Below, piece by piece: positions 1-35,031 of a DNA stretch of 44,237 nucleotides. The position numbers were made by a program, and so were the translations under genes. Under the pieces are notes generated by a model. The model ran no database searches and was not told the DNA's origin. It was given only the letters and a program-made list of their open reading frames with translations. The stretch covers positions 1 to 44,237 of the IMG/VR virus record IMGVR_UViG_3300035670_000421; one strand, given 5' to 3'. How positions within the stretch are numbered: position 1 is the stretch's first letter; the number at the start of each line of letters is the position of its first letter. The DNA is from a virus. Taxonomy: Duplodnaviria > Caudoviricetes.

Positions 1-28
1 GACGAACTGCCAATCTTCAGGCGTCATG
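1..28 (+). repeat. 28-bp terminal overlap, identical to 44210-44237 (circular contig)
   Basis: GACGAACTGCCAATCTTCAGGCGTCATG at both ends; the minus-strand reading frame is continuous across the join (MTPEDWQFV). Confidence 0.95.
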
Positions 29-3000
29 TGTTCGCGCAGGATGTTATTCACTTGCGCCTCAGTCACCTGATAACCAGCCATGATCCGCTGCCTGTTGCCG
101 GCATTACCCCAGTTGAGGGCCAGCGACAACACGCCTTGCTTTGTCAGTACGCCAAAGGCTTTGGTTTTTGTCTCATACCGTTTTTTCATCAAGTCTACTT
201 TCCGGTATGGCTTGAACAAATCCAGCATGGACTTCAGGGCCTGCTGCTGCATTTCAGCCTCAGCATCAGCCGCCTTGTTCAATGGCAATACAAGGGCCTC
301 CCACAAGGGGCCAGAATCCTTGTACCCGTCAAGCTGCCTGACCAGTGATGGTATCTTGACCAGCTCGGCGCCAAACGCCCGCAGGGTGCGTTTCTTACGC
401 TCACCCGGAAGCTCAGTCTCGACATCCCGGCCCTTCAGATCCTTGTTATGCTCATGCAGCGACAGGACGGCCTCGGCCTTCCAGTCGGCAAATTCCATCT
501 TCTTGCCGTTGATGTCGATGGCAAGCCAGCGCTTGGCCTTGTGTTCGATATGCTTCATGGCATCAATGACACCACGCATTTCCTCAATCGTGATGTCCTT
601 GTAATGCCGATGGGAAGCTTGCTCGACAAGCCATGCAGGCAGGTCAATGCCAATACCTTGCTCTTCCTTGTCGGCAATCCATTCAGCCAGGCTCTTACGC
701 TTGTCGATAGCCTTCAGGCTGGTTGACCGCTTGAAGTCATACTGTTCCCGCAGGGCATCAATCTGCTCCAGGTAATCCCGGCCAGCCTTGCCGATCTTCT
801 GCCGCACGGCAACCTTGTCAAACTTGCGCTGGTACTCCACGCCCTTATCAGCATCATCACGAGCCTCAAGCGCTTCCCGGTACATGTAGTGGTTCATCAG
901 CTGCCGGCGCTTGTGAAGGGCGGCCTCATCAAACTTCTTGAGGGCTATCGCCTTGCCAGCCGCCTTGGCCTCACGAACCTCAGCGCTCAGGTAGTGGTTG
1001 GGGTTGATGTCGCGCAGGCGCTTCTTGCCGATAGCCATGCGGGCAGCTTGTTGCATCGCCTCACGGGGAGGCGTCCTGCCGAAAACGCTCTTGCCTTTTC
1101 GTTGCAGGTATTTCAATTCCAGCTCCATGACTTCAGCCCGCTTCTCGTTGTGGATGGCCGCATTGGCCTCATCAACAACAGACCCGTCATTGAGCATGTC
1201 GCCATACTTGTCCAGCATGGCCTGATCAGTCAGCTCTTCAATATGCTGTTTCCGGTTTGGCGCCTCCATCAGCGCCTGCACCATTTCCCTGCCATTGGCA
1301 AAGCCAAAATCAGGAGCCAGCAAGTCGGGATGGACGCCGCCGGTTTTCTGGTAGATGTACGGCCTCGGCAATGCCGACAGCACACCCTCGCCAAACATAT
1401 CAACCAGGGCTTCTTTGTTCAGGCGCTGGGGCTCAAATCCTTCCGGCAGGCTGCCATTCAAAAGCTCTTTGTGCTGCAAGTAATGGAGCGCCATGAAGCG
1501 GGGCTGCCTGTTAACCGAAGCCTCGACTTCTTTACGCATAACCTCGCGCTCGGCCTTCCACCAATCCTTACGCTGCCTGATGATTTCATTCATGACACGG
1601 GTGCGAAGCCGTGATTCATCTTCCATGATGGCGTCATTGGCTTTCTGGATATAGGCAGCCTTTTCCTCATCAGTCATGATGTCAGCATTGAGGATGTCGG
1701 TATTGATGGCATTGCGTTGACGCGCCTCGGCAATCTCTTCCTCGGTCGCAATCAGCCTATCCATCACCCCGCGCATTTCATCATTGAGAGTATTGTCAAG
1801 ACGAAGGCGCTTATAAATATGCTTGAGCCACGCAGAGAAACGCTCAAACACTCGCTGCAAAGCAAGGCTCGGCGCCTTGCCTTCCATGACATACGCTTCC
1901 CAGCCATCGGCAAATTTCTCATGGAATGCCCTCGCAATCGCGCTTTCAATCTTGTCACTTGTCATTTCAATGCCGCCGCGATCAGCCTGCCCTACAACCT
2001 GGTCATCCGTCACGCTTTCGATTTCAGCATCCGTCAGGCCATTCTGCATCTGGTCGCGCTTCAGCAGATTCCGGATATGCGCCGGATCAGATTTCATCCA
2101 CTCCATCGACTTGATGAAATCATCACGGATTTCCTGTGGGGCATCCGGCAGGCTGGCAAAGAACTTCATGTTCTGGAAGAAAATATGCCCGCCCTCATGC
2201 AGCAAGGATGATCTATCTGAAGCCTTGCCAAGCTTGACGATGGATGACTGGTAAGCCTTTGTGGCCAGCTGCACGCTGGCACGGGTGCCGGGTTGGAACA
2301 TCGGCAGGCCTTGCCCTGCCACCAGCTCGCGCATCTTGTCGGTAATGTCGAAGCCGGGTTGGCTCAATGAGCCAGGGTTTTCCGTGATCCACGCTTTTGC
2401 GTCATTTATCGTGTCAAATGGGCCGGAAAGTTTCTCTTTTGTGGATCTCTCAACAACATAGATTCCATCCCAATTGCGTGAATCATCGGCCTGCGTTACT
2501 ACCATCCTACTTCCAGCGAACTCATCGCCAATCGGTATGTCTACGGAGCCAACCTTCCCGCCCATCCCCTTGATAATCTTGTCTGCAGCCTTCGGCACGA
2601 TCTGGTTGTAAAAGGATTTCATGCCTTCGCCGCCGACTTTGAGGCCTTCGCCATCAATAGTCACAGCGCCTTTTCGCACATCGGTTTCCATTATCTTCTT
2701 GGCCATTTCCTTTCCAATAACATCGGAAAGATCCTTGCCAATCAGATCAGGATGCTTGTTTGCGGCATCAACAATTCCGTCATTTCCAACACCAAGATTT
2801 ACATGGCTATTATTGAAGTCTATGACCACGGCCCTGGACTCTTCGCCGGTTCTATTGTCAGTGCGGCGAGCAACCTCTATTGACCTGGCCTGCTTACTCA
2901 AATCATACCGATCAGCCTGCTGATCGCCAGTAGTCCACGCTACACGATCAAAGCCATTCTCTGCCGCATAGGTAATCATGCGCTTCAGCGACAGCGATAC

Positions 3001-6000
3001 CCAGGCATCGGTGCTGGTGACGAAGGGGGCGGAGGGAACTTGCCCGGCCAATATACCGCCGACACCAGTTGTGTCCTCATAATCAAGGCGATTCATATTT
3101 GGATCTTCTTCGGCTATATAGGCTTCAGCCTCTTTGCCGGTAGCGAACCTCGCAACCTCCACTCTTCTGTTGTTTTCGGTGGTGAAAACAACCACAGGCT
3201 TGCCTTTGCTCGCCTCGGCAAATCCTTCCTTCCTTCCCTTCTGCGCCCAATCACTCTGGATCTCTTCAATGAACAGGACGCGCTTGCCTTCTGCATCGGT
3301 ACGCTCGTTGAAGCGAACATGGGCGAGGATGTTGGGCTGGTCGAAGTGGCCGGACTTAAAGTTATTTTTCCCCTTTGCCGCCCTCTTAGTGTCGTTTGCT
3401 GATCGCTTCACAAAGTCGTCGGCATCTTCTTTTGTTTTTAGTCTGGCTATAGATAGATTGCCGTTTTTATAATAAACATGAAAGAACCCATTGGACTCAT
3501 CTATCCTGTAATCTTCCGGCGCAAGATAATCGCCATCCCGCTCAGGCAGCGTCAGCAAAAGCTCGCGGTAATTCTCGCCGCCAGGCAGGACATACTGGCC
3601 GAATTTTGTTTCTTCTGCTTTCTTACCATCTTCAGTATGCAGATCGGCCCACTCATCAACAAGTCTCTGCACATTTTCAGGAAGGTCATCGTAATCAATT
3701 GGGTCATCGTTTTCGTCAAGCAAGTAATTCTGGCCATCCATGTCATCTTCAAATCTATAACCAAGCTCACGCAACTCATTGGCAACATCGGAGCGCCGGC
3801 CCTCGTTATATCTTTGCTGGTAAGAATCACCGCCAAGCACAGTCTCTTCAACCTGCACCCCATTCTGATTCAGGTAATCAACAATCTGCTGCTTAGTGAC
3901 GGGCTTGCCCTGAAGCTTCAGGTAATCTTCAAGGCCGCTCCACTTGATTTCATCAGGCTTGACGCCTGGAGTCTTTTTGATAGCCGCCAGCATCTGGTCA
4001 GGAGAACCCTTCTCCTGCTTCAGGTCCATGGCAGCCTTTGTCAGGGCAGAATAAAAGCCAAGGGGGGATTTTTTGGGATTGGCAGACTGGAAAAACGCAG
4101 CGCCCTCCCTGCCGCCGGCATCATTTCCGGTGGCGCCAGTATCGCGCATCCACTTGATGCCAACCTTATCCTGGTTCAGCCATTCGCGCATACGCGCATG
4201 GGCATCGCCAAGGATCTTGCTTAAGTCTGTCTGTGGAAGCGCGCCACCATTGACGGTGAGTTTTGTTCTTAGCGTTTCCGCGCCGCCGGCCCCGGTAGCA
4301 ACTTCGGCCCATCCGTTTTTCTTGAATGACTGGAATGTAAGGCCGCCCTTGCTTGGGCCATCCATTGATGCAAGCGTTCCATCATTGAACATGGTGACAA
4401 GCAGCGCAGGCTCGGCAGTCAGCCCAGCCTCGATTTGCTCCTTACCAAAGTATTCGATGTTAAGCCTTGCCTCACTGTAGACATCATCAGGAGGCAGGAT
4501 TTCAGCCCTTACCCTGTAACCGGAGAATGGCCCCAAGGTCTCGTTATATTCAACCGACTGATCCGGCTTTCTTCCAAGCTTGTTGATCGACTGGTCGCTA
4601 AATCTCTTAATCGCTTTGATTCTTTCAGTTGTTGCTGAATAGACTCGTCTTTTCGATCCGCCTCCACCAGCCTCATCAGCTCCTTGCGATTCTCCTCCCT
4701 CAAGAAAATCGGATAAGAACTCGCGGGATTCACTTTCCGTGGTTTTCCGGTAGTCGGATCTGGATATGTCTGCACTGTCATTGCGATCACCTAAAATCTT
4801 TTGCCGCTGGGCTTTGGCATCTTCTGGGCTGATAATCCCGCTTGATTCAAAGAAGTCGATTTCTGCCAACTTCTCCTTATCCCTGCCGCTTATCCTGTCA
4901 CCAATTGATACCAACGATTCCAGTATACGCCCTGTTGAGTTTTCGTCAACATTGTTCGGCTGAAAAAGAATGTTCGGATTGCTTGCATCAAATGTGCCAA
5001 CATTGCCAGTTGCGGATTTGATTTGCTCAGGGCGGAAGGCGACAAAATTTCCCATTTCGTCAATGATGCCGTCATGGCCGCCACCCCTGGCGTCAGCAAT
5101 CATCTGATCAACTTCCGCCTTTTCTGTTAGCTCAGTCGTGAACACCCGCAACGGATTCCGGATCGACAAATACACCGGATATACTGCGGGAGCGGTTTCG
5201 GTAGAACTGCGCGACAGCCCGGAGGCGTAATCTTTGCTGCGAGAAAAATAGATGCCAGCACGGGCGGAATCATATGTGTTGCGCGTACCGCTTCGAGCCG
5301 GATCAAATTCAGAAAAACCGCCGTATGGTGTCCCATGATAAACCACCATCGGCTTGCCATCTTCATCGACAACCTTGCTATCGCCAAACCACTTTTTGAA
5401 GGCCTCGGTTTCGGTTTGATCGGTAGCCGGCTTGCCCTGCTCCAACGCCATCCTTACGGCCTCGGCATCCTGTTCAGTCGGATTGCCAGACAGGATGCGC
5501 TTCAGGGTGGCCCGGTCAATCGCCTTGGGATCAATGCCATTCTGGCCAAAGAATTCATCCAGCTCGGCAAATGATCGCTGCTTGGCGGCAAGCTCTTCAT
5601 TCATTTCTTTCATCGGGTAGATTGGCTTGCCCTGCAATTCGTCAGTCATGGCATTCAACAGGGTGTTGATAGACACCCGGCCATAGTCATCGAACTGGAC
5701 ATCACGGCCTTCAAAATAACCAGAAGAGCTGGCAATCTCTGCAAGATCATCAAGTGTTCTGCCATCTTCTCGAAGCGCGAGTTTTTGGTTTGATTTGCGC
5801 TGACCAATCTTGTCAATGTCAAGTCCGCGCAGCTCGCCTCTATCGTCACGAACACCAAGCCTGCGAACCATCTCAACTAGCGATTCTGCATTATTGTAAA
5901 TTTTCTTATCCGTGATTGGCTCGGCCTTTAAATACTCATTCAGGAACAGATCAAGCTCATCCACCGTCTTGCCCTGCAGGGTGAAGGGAACATCGCCCTC

Positions 6001-7839
6001 GATGCCAACAGGCCGCATCCTGAACATGTCCATCGCCGTGCGATTGCCGCCGTCAGCCTTGTTGAAGGTGTCGGCCATCGTCTGGTAGTGGGCAGCAAAG
6101 GCCTTGGCATCAGTCTCTATATCGCCCTCCCTGCCAATATACGAAGCATTGGCAGTCAGCTGGCCACGGATGTCCTCAAAGACTTCGCTGTAGGATTGTT
6201 CGCGGGTTACTCTCTCATTTGTGCCATCAGCAATTGTCTGGACATCTGTGGCCAGGCGCTCGGCAGCTTCCTCATCGGCAATCCTTGCAGATTCAACCGA
6301 CTCATCGCGGTTTCTCAGCTTGATATGATCTGCAAGCTGGTTGTGATAATCCGGCGCTATATCAGCAGCATAAACCTCTATCGGGACAATCACGCTGGTA
6401 TTCAGCGAAGATGCCTCCCGGTATTGCTGCCCAACACCAAGCCTCTCTGCCACTTGGGCAGCGCTTTCCTGATCTGACTGGAAAAGCTCATTGAACTTTT
6501 CAACAGGGATAAACACGCCCTCGATGTCCGACTTGTCTGCCATAGAGCGCAGGTAGGACCTGAACTTGTCAGGCGCACGCTCCCGCAATGTGGAGTTTTT
6601 TGACGCATCTATGATCGAGTCAATCTGTTCTTTGTTTTTGAGCGCTCTTTTTGTTTCTACGCCGCCAGCTACAGCGCCACCAGCAGCGCCGCCATAAATG
6701 CCACCAGCCACAGCGCCGGCAACGCCGCGCTCACCGGCCTGCATGGGATCAATCTCGGCTCCAGTGCCAACGCGCTCGCCAAGATACTCAATGACGCCTT
6801 CCTGGATGAATTCAGTAACGGCCTCTCGCTTGCCTGCCTTGGCGGCCTCCTTGGCAGCCCTTCCTATGATTTGCTTCAGCGCCTCCTTTCCTACATTCTC
6901 GACAGCATCCTTTCCGATTTTTGCAAGGCCTTCAGGAAAAACCCTCTCAAGTAGCGCAGACCCGGTTGCAAACGGAAGAGCCTCAAGCGTATCGGAAATG
7001 TCAGCTGCTTCTTTGCCTTTGTTCTTTGCCCTTTCATCGCCAATTTCATTGGAGAATGAAAGTATGTAGGCAGGCAGCGAAAATACGGCAGCAACCATGT
7101 CAGGGACGGAAGCTATGCCCTGCTCGGCAGCATAAGAAAATACCTCGCCAATACCGGAAGTCACGCCCTCTTGTGAAAATGACTCCTTGACGCTATCCCA
7201 TGTGTGCTGGGGAACCGCATCAATGACGCTGGATAGATCATGGAGAGCTGCGCCAGAATCCCTTGTGAAGTCAAAAGACTCGCCGCTATCCCGCATTTTT
7301 TTGAAATCATCGGGAGCAAGGTAGCGAGGCAGATAATTGTTTTCAGGATCAAAGACAAACCCGCCAAGCGGCATGGCGCTTTCCGCCGCGTTTCCAGCCT
7401 GATCGAGAAAATCAACAAAGTTGGCGCCAACAGTAACAGCCCGCTCGCCAAACCTTCTGGCAGCTGTGTTAAAGAATCCGCGTTCTGCAGCCTTCAGGTT
7501 TTCAATATCATCCCTTGCAAGCTTCGCCATATCGGGATCATTGGCAAGGCTGCCAGCAAGGTACGGACTTTCATCCAGTAGCTTGTCATAATCATTGGCC
7601 TCATACTCAGCCTTTGCCAAAGCTTCAGCCTGGTTCCTTTCAACAGTATCAGTCGGCAGGCCTGTGCGCTTGCTGATGTCGTAAACCTTGGCATACGAAT
7701 CAGGATTGACTCGCGCCGCAGAATTCATGCTCGACTTCAGCGCAACAGCTTTCTCATTCTTTTCGGCATCAAGAATGTCATCATACTCATTGCGATCATC
7801 GCCAGATTCATCAAGAAGGCTGTCATATTCATTGGTCAC
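1..7839 (-). CDS. Giant polyvalent internal virion/ejection protein, N-terminal 2613 codons (continues through the junction to 42656; ~3130 aa total)
   Basis: GTG at 7839 overlaps the upstream TGA; the ORF track shows no terminated ORF in this frame and it is in frame with 42656..44236. Motifs: N-terminal NPDSYAKV..TGLP..DDIENL (LPD22-like, from recall), WFGDSKVVD..YHGT..GIYFS..QIKSATGN (ART-PolyVal-like), IEEIQSDW domain, HEGGH + HEKFADGWEAY zincin-like motif; T7 gp16-like position. Confidence 0.9.
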   Translation of the reverse strand, partial: MTNEYDSLLDESGDDRNEYDDILDAEKNEKAVALKSSMNSAARVNPDSYAKVYDISKRTGLPTDTVERNQAEALAKAEYEANDYDKLLDESPYLAGSLANDPDMAKLARDDIENLKAAERGFFNTAARRFGERAVTVGANFVDFLDQAGNAAESAMPLGGFVFDPENNYLPRYLAPDDFKKMRDSGESFDFTRDSGAALHDLSSVIDAVPQHTWDSVKESFSQEGVTSGIGEVFSYAAEQGIASVPDMVAAVFSLPAYILSFSNEIGDERAKNKGKEAADISDTLEALPFATGSALLERVFPEGLAKIGKDAVENVGKEALKQIIGRAAKEAAKAGKREAVTEFIQEGVIEYLGERVGTGAEIDPMQAGERGVAGAVAGGIYGGAAGGAVAGGVETKRALKNKEQIDSIIDASKNSTLRERAPDKFRSYLRSMADKSDIEGVFIPVEKFNELFQSDQESAAQVAERLGVGQQYREASSLNTSVIVPIEVYAADIAPDYHNQLADHIKLRNRDESVESARIADEEAAERLATDVQTIADGTNERVTREQSYSEVFEDIRGQLTANASYIGREGDIETDAKAFAAHYQTMADTFNKADGGNRTAMDMFRMRPVGIEGDVPFTLQGKTVDELDLFLNEYLKAEPITDKKIYNNAESLVEMVRRLGVRDDRGELRGLDIDKIGQRKSNQKLALREDGRTLDDLAEIASSSGYFEGRDVQFDDYGRVSINTLLNAMTDELQGKPIYPMKEMNEELAAKQRSFAELDEFFGQNGIDPKAIDRATLKRILSGNPTEQDAEAVRMALEQGKPATDQTETEAFKKWFGDSKVVDEDGKPMVVYHGTPYGGFSEFDPARSGTRNTYDSARAGIYFSRSKDYASGLSRSSTETAPAVYPVYLSIRNPLRVFTTELTEKAEVDQMIADARGGGHDGIIDEMGNFVAFRPEQIKSATGNVGTFDASNPNILFQPNNVDENSTGRILESLVSIGDRISGRDKEKLAEIDFFESSGIISPEDAKAQRQKILGDRNDSADISRSDYRKTTESESREFLSDFLEGGESQGADEAGGGGSKRRVYSATTERIKAIKRFSDQSINKLGRKPDQSVEYNETLGPFSGYRVRAEILPPDDVYSEARLNIEYFGKEQIEAGLTAEPALLVTMFNDGTLASMDGPSKGGLTFQSFKKNGWAEVATGAGGAETLRTKLTVNGGALPQTDLSKILGDAHARMREWLNQDKVGIKWMRDTGATGNDAGGREGAAFFQSANPKKSPLGFYSALTKAAMDLKQEKGSPDQMLAAIKKTPGVKPDEIKWSGLEDYLKLQGKPVTKQQIVDYLNQNGVQVEETVLGGDSYQQRYNEGRRSDVANELRELGYRFEDDMDGQNYLLDENDDPIDYDDLPENVQRLVDEWADLHTEDGKKAEETKFGQYVLPGGENYRELLLTLPERDGDYLAPEDYRIDESNGFFHVYYKNGNLSIARLKTKEDADDFVKRSANDTKRAAKGKNNFKSGHFDQPNILAHVRFNERTDAEGKRVLFIEEIQSDWAQKGRKEGFAEASKGKPVVVFTTENNRRVEVARFATGKEAEAYIAEEDPNMNRLDYEDTTGVGGILAGQVPSAPFVTSTDAWVSLSLKRMITYAAENGFDRVAWTTGDQQADRYDLSKQARSIEVARRTDNRTGEESRAVVIDFNNSHVNLGVGNDGIVDAANKHPDLIGKDLSDVIGKEMAKKIMETDVRKGAVTIDGEGLKVGGEGMKSFYNQIVPKAADKIIKGMGGKVGSVDIPIGDEFAGSRMVVTQADDSRNWDGIYVVERSTKEKLSGPFDTINDAKAWITENPGSLSQPGFDITDKMRELVAGQGLPMFQPGTRASVQLATKAYQSSIVKLGKASDRSSLLHEGGHIFFQNMKFFASLPDAPQEIRDDFIKSMEWMKSDPAHIRNLLKRDQMQNGLTDAEIESVTDDQVVGQADRGGIEMTSDKIESAIARAFHEKFADGWEAYVMEGKAPSLALQRVFERFSAWLKHIYKRLRLDNTLNDEMRGVMDRLIATEEEIAEARQRNAINTDILNADIMTDEEKAAYIQKANDAIMEDESRLRTRVMNEIIRQRKDWWKAEREVMRKEVEASVNRQPRFMALHYLQHKELLNGSLPEGFEPQRLNKEALVDMFGEGVLSALPRPYIYQKTGGVHPDLLAPDFGFANGREMVQALMEAPNRKQHIEELTDQAMLDKYGDMLNDGSVVDEANAAIHNEKRAEVMELELKYLQRKGKSVFGRTPPREAMQQAARMAIGKKRLRDINPNHYLSAEVREAKAAGKAIALKKFDEAALHKRRQLMNHYMYREALEARDDADKGVEYQRKFDKVAVRQKIGKAGRDYLEQIDALREQYDFKRSTSLKAIDKRKSLAEWIADKEEQGIGIDLPAWLVEQASHRHYKDITIEEMRGVIDAMKHIEHKAKRWLAIDINGKKMEFADWKAEAVLSLHEHNKDLKGRDVETELPGERKKRTLRAFGAELVKIPSLVRQLDGYKDSGPLWEALVLPLNKAADAEAEMQQQALKSMLDLFKPYRKVDLMKKRYETKTKAFGVLTKQGVLSLALNWGNAGNRQRIMAGYQVTEAQVNNILREHMTPEDWQFV
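4509..4781 (-). CDS. Putative nested (overprinted) 90-aa helical protein in an alternative frame of the giant gene
   Basis: AGGTGAT SD at 4786-4792 well spaced from ATG 4781; charged amphipathic sequence LREENRKELMRLVEADRKDESIQQQLKESKRLRDL; host frame is low-complexity here (EGGESQGADEAGGGGS); promoter upstream. Confidence 0.6.
   Translation of the reverse strand: MTVQTYPDPTTGKPRKVNPASSYPIFLREENRKELMRLVEADRKDESIQQQLKESKRLRDLATSRSTSLEESRISRLNITRPWGHSPVTG
4922..4949 (-). promoter_or_regulatory. Intragenic sigma70-like promoter with overlapping 15-bp operator (4935-4949)
   Basis: TTGACG-16 nt-TATACT on minus strand; palindrome TTGAG-TTTTC-GTCAA covers the -35. Confidence 0.65.
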
Positions 7840-9503
7840 TGTCTTGTCACCTTTTTCAGATAAAGGTTAGAAATAGCCTCTTCAGTAGGCTCAATGCCCC
7901 GGCGCCGAAGCGTATCTTCAATTTTCTTGCGCTCAATCTCAGGAACCCTTGGCGCTTCATCCATGAAGAATGTTTCCCCGGATTCAACCTCAAACAATCG
8001 CTTGTCTGGATCGCGCAATATATTGCCCTTAACCTCACCGCTGATCATCATCTTGTCGATAATGGCATCAACCTCTTGAGGCTTGATTTTCCTGCCTTCA
8101 GCGTTTTCAAGTGCAGAAATATCATCCTGCAATTTACGCATGAACAGCTGGCCTTTGTCATCATCCACATCAACACCAATGTTTTTCAGGGCCTTCGATG
8201 CCTTGGAATCAATGGACTGGATATGGGTGAGTTGTGTCTTATCGCCGCTGGCAATAGATCGCTGAAGCTTGCCGAATTCCTGAAAATCAGACTGGTCAAG
8301 CTTGCCGACATAATCCATCAGCTCGATACGCTTGAACTCTTCCGGCTTGGTTGCCGCCATCCTGTTCAATTGATTCCATGTTGCAAGATCGGTTTTCCTT
8401 GCGCCAGACTTCATGGAAGCTTCAAGCTCTTTCAGGTTTTTCTGCTGGTCAAATGTCATATCATGCCAGCGATTCCTTGGGATTGAATCAACAGAGCCAC
8501 CATCCAGGACCATCTTGCCGGCCTCGTTGTAGGCCGCCTTGTTTATCTCGCCCTTGGCTGCATCATCCTCATCCCTGCGAATCTTGAGCCGGCGAATCGC
8601 CTCATCGGCCAGCTGGGTATCATCACCTGCAGCCTCGCGCACGGACTTGGTAAGCTCGTTGATCGGCACGCCGCTTTTGTAAATCTCATCGACCATGCGC
8701 CGGGATTTATTGTTGCGAACACCATCCTCAAGCTGGCCTTCAATCTTGTTCTTGACTTCAGGATCTTGGATGTACGCCTTGACGCCAGGCTTCTCGGCAT
8801 TGCCATTATAAAAATCATTGGCCCGCTCAAAGTCATTGCTGGCCATCATGCGATTGATGATGGTTTGGTAGGCGCCATCGTAGAACCCCTGCTTTTTGGC
8901 AGCCAGCTCTTCAGGCGTCATGTTTCGATCCATGCCATAGCTGATGATTTCAGCCTCGCCTTCCTTGAGCGCGATACGCATACGCTCTTCATCCATGTAG
9001 CTATTGGCTGCCCTCGCAGAAGCAACAGTCAATGTGGATTCATGGGTGGCATCTTCCCATGCCCGAAGCCCGCGACTTGCATGCCGATCAATATCAACAT
9101 CAAAATCAGCAAGATAAGAATCCATCCTGTCAATGGCTGCTTTTCGCTGATTTTCATTATCCAGCTCGGCAAGGGCGGCCTCTTTCAGCGCCTGCAATTG
9201 CTTCTTTGTATCGGCAGACCGATCAAACGCATCCTTGCCGGATGAATTCAAATAACCCTCTTTCGGGTCATTCATCAATGTATTGCCGTTGGTATAAAGC
9301 TTCTTGATGGCCTCTTTTGCCCTGCCGGTGTCAAGGTCATCCTGCCGCTTGGCTTGCTCCTCAGTTATCTTTTGGCCCAGCTCACTCAGCCCCTTTCCAA
9401 ACCCAGCACCAAAAGCTTCAGGGCTTGCCTGAACAGTGAACCTCGCGCCAGGCATGGGCGAATTCTGAACTCTGGCAAGGGCATAGGTTTCGACTTTTGG
9501 CAT
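7836..9503 (-). CDS. Internal virion/ejection protein (T7 gp15-like position)
   Basis: 555-aa alpha-helical protein between the small ejection protein and the giant protein. Confidence 0.7.
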   Translation of the reverse strand: MPKVETYALARVQNSPMPGARFTVQASPEAFGAGFGKGLSELGQKITEEQAKRQDDLDTGRAKEAIKKLYTNGNTLMNDPKEGYLNSSGKDAFDRSADTKKQLQALKEAALAELDNENQRKAAIDRMDSYLADFDVDIDRHASRGLRAWEDATHESTLTVASARAANSYMDEERMRIALKEGEAEIISYGMDRNMTPEELAAKKQGFYDGAYQTIINRMMASNDFERANDFYNGNAEKPGVKAYIQDPEVKNKIEGQLEDGVRNNKSRRMVDEIYKSGVPINELTKSVREAAGDDTQLADEAIRRLKIRRDEDDAAKGEINKAAYNEAGKMVLDGGSVDSIPRNRWHDMTFDQQKNLKELEASMKSGARKTDLATWNQLNRMAATKPEEFKRIELMDYVGKLDQSDFQEFGKLQRSIASGDKTQLTHIQSIDSKASKALKNIGVDVDDDKGQLFMRKLQDDISALENAEGRKIKPQEVDAIIDKMMISGEVKGNILRDPDKRLFEVESGETFFMDEAPRVPEIERKKIEDTLRRRGIEPTEEAISNLYLKKVTRQ

Positions 9504-24514: not shown

Positions 24515-24775
24515 CTACTTTTCAGCTGACAAATAGCGGGCTGGATTGAATATATCTGGCCTCAAATCATGAGGCTTGATGGCATACTGGTATGCTTCAC
24601 AAACCCCCTCAACTTTATCCGCCGGCACCTTGCCCCGGTAGAACCAGGCATAGACCGTTTTGATATTTTCCCCGGTTTTTGCGGCCAAGCCCGCAAAATC
24701 CCCCTCGGCCAGCACCAGAAGGCGCTTCATGGGATCACTATCAGGCCGCTGCATCACACTGAAAACTAAAGACAT
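24515..24775 (-). CDS. Cro/YdaS-like HTH regulator
   Basis: HTH with TVYAW, GKVPA and C-terminal LRPDIF; ATG 24775 after GAGGT; first gene of the leftward operon. Confidence 0.8.
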   Translation of the reverse strand: MSLVFSVMQRPDSDPMKRLLVLAEGDFAGLAAKTGENIKTVYAWFYRGKVPADKVEGVCEAYQYAIKPHDLRPDIFNPARYLSAEK

Positions 24776-24786
24776 TTTGATACCTC

Positions 24787-24857
24787 TTGAGATTTTTTCA
24801 ATTAGCTGTTGACAATTCTGCAAAACGGATTATGCTTGGCATCAAGTACGAAAGCAA
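24787..24857. promoter_or_regulatory. Divergent switch region: overlapping promoters and tandem operators
   Basis: Plus: TTGACA-16-TATGCT (24809-24836); minus: TTGCTT-17-CATAAT (24857-24829); operator-like sites 24787-24801, 24809-24823 and half-site 24831-24845 at 22-bp spacing. Confidence 0.7.
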
Positions 24858-32384: not shown

Positions 32385-32399
32385 TTTATATATTGTCAA
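32385..32399. promoter_or_regulatory. Operator-like site upstream of the repressor
   Basis: TTTAT-ATATT-GTCAA (one mismatch to consensus). Confidence 0.55.
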
Positions 32400-32426
32400 C
32401 ACGACCACCCAAGGAAGGGGAAACGA

Positions 32427-32999
32427 GTGGCGATTGATGGCGAATGGATGCGCCAGCAGCTGAAGGAAAAGGGAAAGAGCCAGGCTGATCTGGCCCGCTT
32501 CCTGAAGGTGGAGCCGGCCATCATCACACGCATCCTGCAGGGCAGGCGCCGGCTTCAGCTGGATGACTGCCGGCAGATCGCCCGCTTCCTTGGGATGCCG
32601 GTTGATGATGTCCTTCGCCATGCCGGCATGAAGCTCAGGCAGGTGACGGCATCCGGCAAGGCGATGGTGCCGATCATCGGCAGGGCTGATGCCAATGGGC
32701 AAGTCAGGCTTTTGTCTGGCGATGCAACCACCAGCATGGATCTGCCGGGTGATGCCGTGGCGATCAGGCTGGATGAGCCCGAAGGCTGGACGGCATTTGC
32801 CACTAGTGATCGCAGCCCGCCCGATATGATGATCCGCCGGATGGTGATGGCTGCCGCCGAGGATGGTGGATGGTGGATAGGTGAACTCAGGCGAGGCCAC
32901 GAGCCCGGCCTGTTCGACCTGAAGCCACTGGCAGGCCGGATGATTGAAGGCCTTGCCATTGCCTATTGCCAGGCAATCGTATGGATTAGACCCGCCTAA
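32427..32999 (+). CDS. XRE-family CI-like repressor with degenerate S24-like C-terminal domain
   Basis: HTH KSQADLARFLKVEPAIITRILQGRRRL; VPIIG linker; no GDSM-type catalytic Ser motif. Confidence 0.78.
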   Translation: MAIDGEWMRQQLKEKGKSQADLARFLKVEPAIITRILQGRRRLQLDDCRQIARFLGMPVDDVLRHAGMKLRQVTASGKAMVPIIGRADANGQVRLLSGDATTSMDLPGDAVAIRLDEPEGWTAFATSDRSPPDMMIRRMVMAAAEDGGWWIGELRRGHEPGLFDLKPLAGRMIEGLAIAYCQAIVWIRPA

Positions 33000-34868: not shown

Positions 34869-34930
34869 CCAGTATGTGACCAGCGAATTCCAGCGCCCGC
34901 CAGTGAAGTCAGCCAAGCTATTGATTTCAC

Positions 34931-34982
34931 TGGTGGGCGCAGCAGGACTCGAACCTGCGACCCGCTGATTAAGAGTCAGCTG
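34931..34982 (-). tRNA. 3' part of tRNA-Lys(CTT) forming the attP core; not a full tRNA
   Basis: GCTGA-CTCTTAA-TCAGC anticodon arm, GGTTCGAGTCC T arm, ends GCGCCCACCA; D arm and 5' acceptor strand absent. Confidence 0.88.
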
Positions 34983-35031
34983 TTCCGTGCATACCGGCAA
35001 ATACCGATTATCAACTAAGTGTATAAAGTTG

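Follow-up and report, generated by a model that had tools for sequence, protein, structure and literature searches.

Nested and paired genes that resemble the locus described here are known from several systems. Lambda Rz1 lies in the +1 frame of Rz; it encodes a lipoprotein subunit of the lysis machinery and shares the late transcript of Rz. In GNAT type II toxin-antitoxin (TA) pairs, the antitoxin has a ribbon-helix-helix (RHH) fold and an autoregulatory operator. In the portions of the literature covered here, three further systems come close: (i) the Rpn intragenic TA genes, in which an internal promoter and start give a small, variable protein that blocks the large one (Zhong et al. 2023, PMC10400941); (ii) the MuF polymorphic toxins of temperate phages, for which a small domain-less open reading frame (ORF) was proposed to prevent self-intoxication (PMC5576092); and (iii) polyvalent proteins, whose modular domains include GNATs, predicted to be protein-modifying effectors and often found beside an ADP-ribosyltransferase (ART) domain in gammaproteobacterial phages (PMC5512222). 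Polyvalent proteins occur widely, and the fitness of phage PTXU04 depends on one of them, as described in part of a recent report (PMC11879866). Here we analyze a 90-amino-acid (aa) gene nested out of frame within the gene for a giant polyvalent protein of a phage, IMG/VR record IMGVR_UViG_3300035670_000421. We refer to the whole stretch of 44,237 nucleotides as the window. The locus may bear on the question of how a phage tolerates, or times, the effectors packed into such a protein.

Conservation of the nested gene and its expression signals

Judged by the conservation of its sequence, the nested gene is real at the level of a family, which we call SYP. The 90-aa protein as query returned no relative among viral contigs and none among 5.8 billion proteins at near lengths, and the ESM Atlas leads for it (integrase arm domains) were rejected, all being below 0.9. 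With the adjoining host-frame domain as query, a first search returned one protein, and iterated profiles recovered 15 distinct DNA loci in viral, metagenome and genome contigs, plus protein-only relatives. The window and these 15 relatives are the 16 distinct loci counted below, with duplicates removed (L022, which is the window, and L027, L028, L029, L031, L032, L033, L037, L044, L046-L053, L056, L061, L062 and L064). Orphan loci were each counted once (L054/L058/L063, L055/L059/L065 and L057/L060), L001-L021 matched essentially the ART part alone, and genomes G077 and G648 were left unscored. Named hosts of the relatives are Lysobacteraceae, isolates of which carry the cassette, and other Gammaproteobacteria, and the domain is 42-84% identical among relatives.

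In the +1 frame of all 16 loci the motif S-Y-P-x-x-x-R is present and is preceded by an ATG or GTG; where measured, the motif stands about 220-270 nt upstream of the domain's G-x-E-Q anchor. The domain was found without the nested ORF in none of these loci. The original prediction had asked whether homologues keep both frames along with the start signals. Both frames are kept in 16/16 loci (L026 is frameshifted after the motif), and most loci keep a Shine-Dalgarno (SD) sequence and a promoter-like site. The frameshift in L026, at about 4000, fuses the nested frame to the domain and is either an assembly error or a real conversion to one protein.

We found selection on the nested frame by several measures. 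The host frame over the motif varies (FLS, IVS, QLP, KLP or ELP), and the Ser codon of the motif is TCN in 11 loci and AGY in 5. Because Ser switches between TCN and AGY, selection seems to act on the peptide rather than on the DNA, and we rejected DNA- or RNA-level conservation as the explanation. Four-fold sites of the host frame are identical at 56% (642/1140) in the overlap versus 35% (1383/3904) downstream (p 4e-4; 15 loci, without L026). Among changed nested codons, 68 of 204 changes were synonymous, versus 53 of 596 in the same frame downstream, across 8 pairs of relatives that share members and are not independent. The frame is open for 49-73 codons from the motif to the stop in all 15 loci tested, for which the chance per locus is 5-63%. 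The family thus shows two marks of an overprinted gene: (i) an open alternative frame with start signals, and (ii) purifying selection on that frame. Translational coupling to an in-frame restart was rejected, as no conserved host-frame start was seen by eye at the nested stop.

The expression signals are likewise shared by many loci. The background rankings of SD and promoter sites, and the screen for nested ORFs described below, used a sigma70 matrix and an anti-SD motif that are approximations. By these, the SD ranks within the top 5% of background at 9 of 16 loci, a somewhat flattering count taken from the best of several starts, and the promoter-like site lies in the best 10% in 9 of 16 loci and in the best 20% in 13. 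Its distance is fixed within subgroups, for example at 41 nt in four loci.

The window copy has the elements that the original prediction described (Table 1): TTGACG-16-TATACT with a 15-bp palindrome over the -35 on the minus strand, and an SD followed by an ATG and a 90-aa ORF in another frame, with the translation as quoted. The promoter-like site, which reads VDENSTGRIL in the host frame, has 10 of 12 consensus matches, is the best of four sigma70-like sites in positions 1-8000 (shuffles give 5.6 weaker sites) and has the top score among 34 background windows of the giant gene. Just two sites genome-wide fit TTGAC-N15-19-TAnnnT: this one and the promoter at 24809. The proposed common layout of these two holds for their TTGAC-type sequences but not for the palindrome, whose full copy near 24809 (24787-24801) lies 7 nt upstream of the -35, not over it. 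In the leader, a predicted hairpin masks a strong AAGGAG that has no start, and the same prediction leaves the real SD mostly open; the hairpin is a possible attenuator or stabilizer. A second ATG of the nested frame, at 4676, could start a 55-aa form that lacks the conserved motif; its AAGGAG, however, stands just 3 nt ahead, which is probably too close.

The length of the ORF does not by itself count as evidence, because the +1 frame of the giant gene holds five stop-free runs of at least 90 codons. Of 14 alternative-frame ORFs in the giant gene, the nested ORF, judged from its last 55 codons, is alone in having a protein-like composition. From its signals, we predict that the nested gene may be transcribed and translated in this phage; a search for RNA runs containing this DNA listed none.

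The cassette, its domain and the proposed role of the small protein

The nested gene travels with the domain that follows it. As originally proposed, the promoter-like site, nested ORF and adjoining domain lie between two FQ boundaries, the downstream one of which ends the module at about 4092-4087. The idea that they form a self-contained cassette also held up, since nested ORF and domain occur together in 16/16 loci and move between unrelated giant proteins: the unit is found in LPD22, LPD38, LPD39, LPD37 and LPD5/LPD1 giants, at least five kinds, and the homologous host giants carry LPD1/5/22/37/38/39, RadC and PBECR5. By sequence comparison, the unit between FQ/FS boundaries is a mobile two-frame cassette. 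The module and domain had no match in GenBank phages or plasmids, PDB sequences, Pfam or the Atlas. Two chromosomal remnants of giant genes, L035:3560-5623 (688 codons) and L036:3341-5149 (603 codons), keep the whole cassette with both frames intact.

Because the cassette moves among types of giant protein, any cognate partner of the small protein must lie inside it. The original prediction had linked the nested gene to the ART domain, which is adjacent in the window and also seen in L039, L042, P0007 and the G163 giant. This link was not supported: of 15 homologous host stretches, each reaching about 4 kb to either side, two contain ART-PolyVal, downstream of the cassette both times, and in none of the 15 relatives does it lie directly upstream of the nested ORF. 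ART is therefore a neighbor and not a member of the cassette. With no ART in 13 of 15 stretches, we rejected it as the partner and consider it very improbable that the small protein neutralizes the ART domain just upstream.

The adjoining domain, whose first helix and strand overlap the nested gene, was modeled by AlphaFold2 with a predicted local distance difference test (pLDDT) score of 85. A VIA structural search gave 34 acetyl- or acyltransferases among its top 50 rows, including the toxins TacT3 and AtaT, with a best Z of 5.8 (Elp3; root-mean-square deviation 4.0 over 98 residues). The predicted fold is thus weakly GNAT-like, a signal that is consistent but weak. The residues that never vary in the alignment group into D-x-H-A-R and W-x-R-x-T-G-A-x-G, a pattern like that of an enzyme or ligand-binding site. 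The small protein was predicted as a long and a short helix (25-64 and 69-80) with no compact core (predicted template modeling score, pTM, 0.33), and it has no Pfam or PHROG match. Co-folding of the two gave 0.62, 0.04 and 0.01, with the median under the mark, and we counted this neither for nor against a partnership. Across relatives, the small protein is 30% identical and the domain 55%.

Genome searches gave matches in 5 of 400 genomes of one family (Lysobacteraceae) and 2 of 400 of one class, with three partial matches. The giant of G163 is intact (2870 codons) and retains the small gene, but the domain breaks off at model position 64 and gives way to a different +1-frame ORF. G194 has a truncated integrase and, next to it, the small gene with its promoter-like site; here the overlap contains a host-frame stop and the domain ends at position 52. 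The G497 copy adjoins type I restriction genes: its small gene of 92 codons is uninterrupted, but the host frame carries two stops within the overlap and many more nearby. The dependence is one-way: the small gene was seen without an intact domain, and the domain was never seen without the small gene. Such one-way dependence is typical of orphan immunity genes and is established for polymorphic toxins.

The replacement ORF in G163 (L058, minus strand, about 7730-8020) has about 85 codons in the +1 frame, and its host-frame lead-in resembles that of L043:5229. In G497 (L060, about 7550-8162), two further small ORFs, both intact, stand ahead of the orphan SYP gene within the remains of a decayed giant gene; this fragment lies between a HARE-HTH gene and the type I restriction genes and is a possible captured array of nested genes.

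We hypothesized that the small protein of the cassette is a repressor-controlled inhibitor, or antidote, of the adjoining domain, a reading that we favor tentatively and rate at not quite even. Its partner would probably be the downstream, weakly GNAT-like domain and not ART. In this scheme, transcription from the internal promoter by the host's sigma70 polymerase would begin when the DNA enters or when the repressor leaves the operator, and the small protein would be translated from 4781. The antidote would then be present before the late synthesis of the giant protein, and by inhibiting the adjoining domain would protect the producing cell; it might also limit the effect of the giant-protein copy injected with the virion. 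Bacteria that capture the small gene alone would be protected against the effector of incoming phages. By analogy, the one-way dependence, the faster divergence of the small protein and its private promoter fit toxin-immunity logic.

As the main alternative, the small protein might act independently on a host target or on rival phages, by host modulation, counter-defense or exclusion. Its gene would have been overprinted on a floppy linker and would hitchhike via its overlap with the domain's first helix and recombination at FQ/FS boundaries. The small gene is intact in three genomes in which the domain is cut or the host frame broken, unrelated small ORFs occur in linkers of other giants (one matching the stand-alone family phrog_16759, E 3e-17), and a near-consensus promoter with an operator resembles acr-aca control as described in part of one report (PMC13551039). 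However, no small gene was found in an unrelated context: 5 of 5 viral pattern matches (one spacing searched) and 5 of 5 matches among the 400 Lysobacteraceae-family genomes lie on the domain or its stump. The domain keeps the small gene in 16/16 loci, and a counter-defense gene is less expected to persist on bacterial chromosomes. We regard independent action as possible but rather doubtful.

A third explanation makes the small protein a partner of the giant virion protein in folding, processing or packaging, possibly carried in the capsid. It draws on the small protein's basic charge (17 K/R, 12 D/E) and helical model, on a nested ORF in the L018 giant that matches the N-termini of virion structural proteins (phrog_22033, phrog_25121), and on lambda Rz1, which is nested in Rz and is a structural partner. 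Yet the small gene is kept where the giant frame is dead (G194 and G497), and it tracks one mobile domain, not a type of giant protein; we judge this explanation improbable.

Several observations weigh against the antidote reading. Co-occurrence is no proof of partnership, because the overlap itself ties both genes, and the three orphans fit equally a small gene that is useful on its own. For the domain, Foldseek returned nothing at E 0.001 and the VIA Z of 5.8 lies below the tool's caution line of Z 8. The acetyl-CoA motif A of GNATs, Q/R-x-x-G-x-G/A before a long helix, is absent from the 21-sequence alignment, and toxicity of the domain therefore stays putative. Two of 16 loci (L039 and L040) have a weak SD, and L040 and the G497 orphan have poor promoters. 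The palindrome upstream of the nested ORF is absent in 15/15 relatives, so we rejected the operator as a conserved feature of the cassette. If the nested copy is repressed in the lysogen, this phage's copy would give no protection against superinfection.

The window copy itself is an outlier: its nested protein is 14-28% identical to the others, and comparison with two relatives gives no synonymous excess (4/30 and 5/34 versus 10/75 and 9/74). This divergence, together with the long +1 runs common in the giant gene, is what would be seen if the ORF, SD and promoter of this phage were a silent by-product or decaying relic. Against this stand the invariant motif, top-ranked SD, promoter and operator of the window copy, the selection across the family, and the motif-to-stop run that is open at every locus tested. 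Because the motif is retained, the frame open, the composition protein-like and the signals strong, we count the window copy as a family member, and consider a silent relic quite improbable.

Extending the antidote reading, we propose that giants are built as arrays of interchangeable effector cassettes, and that each cassette can carry an out-of-frame cognate antidote with a private promoter in what looks like a linker. The SYP and GNAT-like pair would be one of these, wired into a repressor regulon, and bacteria would capture antidotes as orphan immunity against injected effectors. This generalization is speculative, and we would sooner expect it to fail than to hold. If it is true, a hidden cognate inhibitor in each cassette would explain the tolerance and timing of effectors, automated gene calling would be overlooking a class of small phage genes, and small orphan ORFs of bacterial islands might have originated as captured antidotes. 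Even if the small protein is an independent effector, the locus adds a small-protein family that is new, under selection and unannotated, together with a domain family, likewise new, for which our searches of Pfam, PHROG and PDB sequences gave no match. The SYP family is rare, with 16 distinct loci and three orphans.

Operator, phage genome and other giant genes

Table 1. Positions of the nested gene, its signals and surrounding features in the window.
Feature	Position	Strand	Details
Sigma70-type promoter-like site, TTGACG-16-TATACT	4922..4949	-	-35 at 4949-4944, -10 at 4927-4922; predicted start about 4915
Palindrome TTGA-N7-TCAA over the -35, likely phage repressor operator	4935..4949	.	Over-represented; ranked 8th genome-wide by a matrix trained without 4935
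Predicted 11-bp hairpin in 135-nt leader	4849..4876	-	z -3.56, 0/200 shuffles equal it, for a window picked after viewing the fold
Shine-Dalgarno AGGTGATC	4785..4792	-	-8.1 kcal/mol, top 1.3% of 157 same-frame ATG/GTG
Nested +1-frame gene, 90 aa	4509..4781	-	ATG 4781, TAA 4511-4509; diverged SYP family member
Nested-frame motif S-Y-P-x-x-x-R	4698..4718	-	Host frame over the motif is FLSDFLE
Unnamed host-frame domain, ~170 aa, weakly GNAT-like fold	4087..4647	-	21-sequence alignment, 24 invariant columns
Upstream FQ module boundary	4960..4965	-	Ends the ART block; FQ/FS ends recur in homologues
ART-PolyVal ADP-ribosyltransferase domain, aa 825-950	4990..5367	-	PF18760 E 5e-22
Giant polyvalent internal-virion protein gene (host frame)	1..7839, on through the 28-nt repeat into 44236-42656	-	~3130 codons
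Near-palindromic operator site (32385, score 17.8) upstream of 190-aa helix-turn-helix (HTH) repressor gene with C-terminal domain (32427-32999)	32385..32999	+	Candidate operator binder; binding predicted

The palindrome TTGA-N7-TCAA occurs in 10 genomic copies versus 1.10 expected, and none of 100 shuffles reached 10. A matrix trained on seven other sites gave the copy at 4935 a score of 17.4, above one training site, with the best background at 11.0. Strong sites lie in the divergent promoter region (24787), and the palindrome also stands at the starts of head, small terminase, tail, methylase and excisionase genes (19066, 21243, 42645, 33046, 34044, 28309). Over-representation at promoters and gene starts is the pattern of a repressor operator. 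Because sites also precede late genes, the palindrome marks a lytic regulon, early and late, and not early genes alone; one regulator may control both sets directly. The original prediction had described the nested gene as operator-controlled and early. Operator control is plausible in this phage, to which it would be particular among the relatives tested; early expression does not follow, as the palindrome also marks late-gene starts. The position of the near-palindromic site suggests that the HTH gene at 32427-32999 encodes an autoregulated repressor, far from a Cro-like gene at 24515-24775. Products of either gene may bind the operator.

The virus record is a complete genome of 44.2 kb with a 28-nt terminal repeat. 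It belongs to a temperate podophage that encodes an integrase, head-tail connector, GP7 capsid, nozzle and internal virion proteins. The giant gene lies after the internal virion and nozzle genes and before a tail gene, among late virion genes. Both of its pieces match phrog_9880, its neighbors are annotated as internal virion proteins, and it encodes LPD22 and ART-PolyVal; a domain search found no MuF domain in it. With several conflict domains and LPDs in one polypeptide and a location among late virion genes, the product is a polyvalent protein in the sense of the parts of Iyer et al. 2017 (PMC5512222) covered here. Contigs from run X1 (3900-5089) agree with the window sequence without differences, as do pieces in X2 and X4; these runs are from one study and possibly from the source sample. 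A tRNA-like 3' segment at about 34930-34985, by eye tRNA-Lys, lies between the excisionase region and the integrase and is the likely attP.

We also screened other giants for nested ORFs. By a crude composition screen, 18 of 196 alternative ORFs were protein-like in 204 kb of giants, versus 1 of 30 in 23.7 kb of other genes. Without the 8 SYP-family members, the counts are 10 per 204 kb versus 1 per 23.7 kb, about equal in density, so this screen gave no general enrichment of nested genes in giants. The phrog_16759 match mentioned above is a 49-aa +1-frame ORF at L018:2099-2245, which also matches N-termini of virion proteins and is followed in the host frame by a stretch that is GNAT-like by eye. 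Further candidates for protein-like +1-frame linker ORFs are L003:2765, L004/L007:2234, L012:803, L014:161, L015:2459, L020:2018, L024:2904, L043:5229 and L002:5399. Several of these directly precede ART-like domains, and the L003 ORF has a K-Y-P-M-H motif reminiscent of the SYP family. L001:386 was rejected as a nested gene, being an ordinary upstream gene that overlaps the start of the giant.

Comparison with known systems

We compared the cassette with the closest described systems. As in the polyvalent proteins of Iyer et al., the host gene encodes LPD22 and ART-PolyVal and lies next to virion genes. Unlike the domains described in the passages covered, the cassette domain matches no Pfam LPD or GNAT model; our comparison was with the main text, and the domain could be among the GNAT families in the supplements of that paper (PMC5512222). 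In its main text, "overlap" does not occur and "nested" refers to a hairpin only, and the passages covered here describe no out-of-frame genes. The literature searched, which covered few subscription papers, held nothing relevant on nested or out-of-frame genes in polyvalent or ejection proteins.

Like the MuF toxins, as far as the portion covered describes them, the locus combines a virion-associated multidomain protein carrying a variable effector domain with a small domain-less ORF. The MuF toxin is C-terminal and its small ORF separate and downstream, whereas here the domain is internal and the small gene lies out of frame at the domain start (PMC5576092).

In GNAT type II TA systems such as TacT and AtaT, the small gene precedes a GNAT-fold domain and follows a promoter with a palindrome; the cassette resembles this layout, with a domain that is weakly GNAT-like. 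The cassette differs in that the small protein is modeled as two helices and not as an RHH fold, the domain lacks motif A and sits inside a 3000-aa protein, and the operator is genome-wide, not autoregulatory.

The embedded spanin genes Rz/Rz1 of lambda (PMC5295617, PMC6139136) offer a phage parallel for the arrangement of the genes: a same-strand, out-of-frame gene nested in a longer phage gene, with a product that partners the host-frame product, a partnership presumed here. The SYP gene differs from Rz1 in having its own promoter-like site and operator, a product predicted to be soluble and helical, and a cassette that moves between giant genes.

The Rpn genes, in the sections covered, are similar in logic if the antidote reading holds (PMC10400941). 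Both are genes within genes with an internal promoter and start, and blocking of the large product, shown for Rpn, is proposed here. RpnS is in frame, being the C-terminus of RpnL, a bacterial defense nuclease; the SYP gene is in the +1 frame, is unrelated in sequence, and precedes its presumed target, extending across that target's start, within a phage virion protein. Set beside these systems, and going by its conserved sequence, the cassette is a real, previously unnamed two-frame unit.

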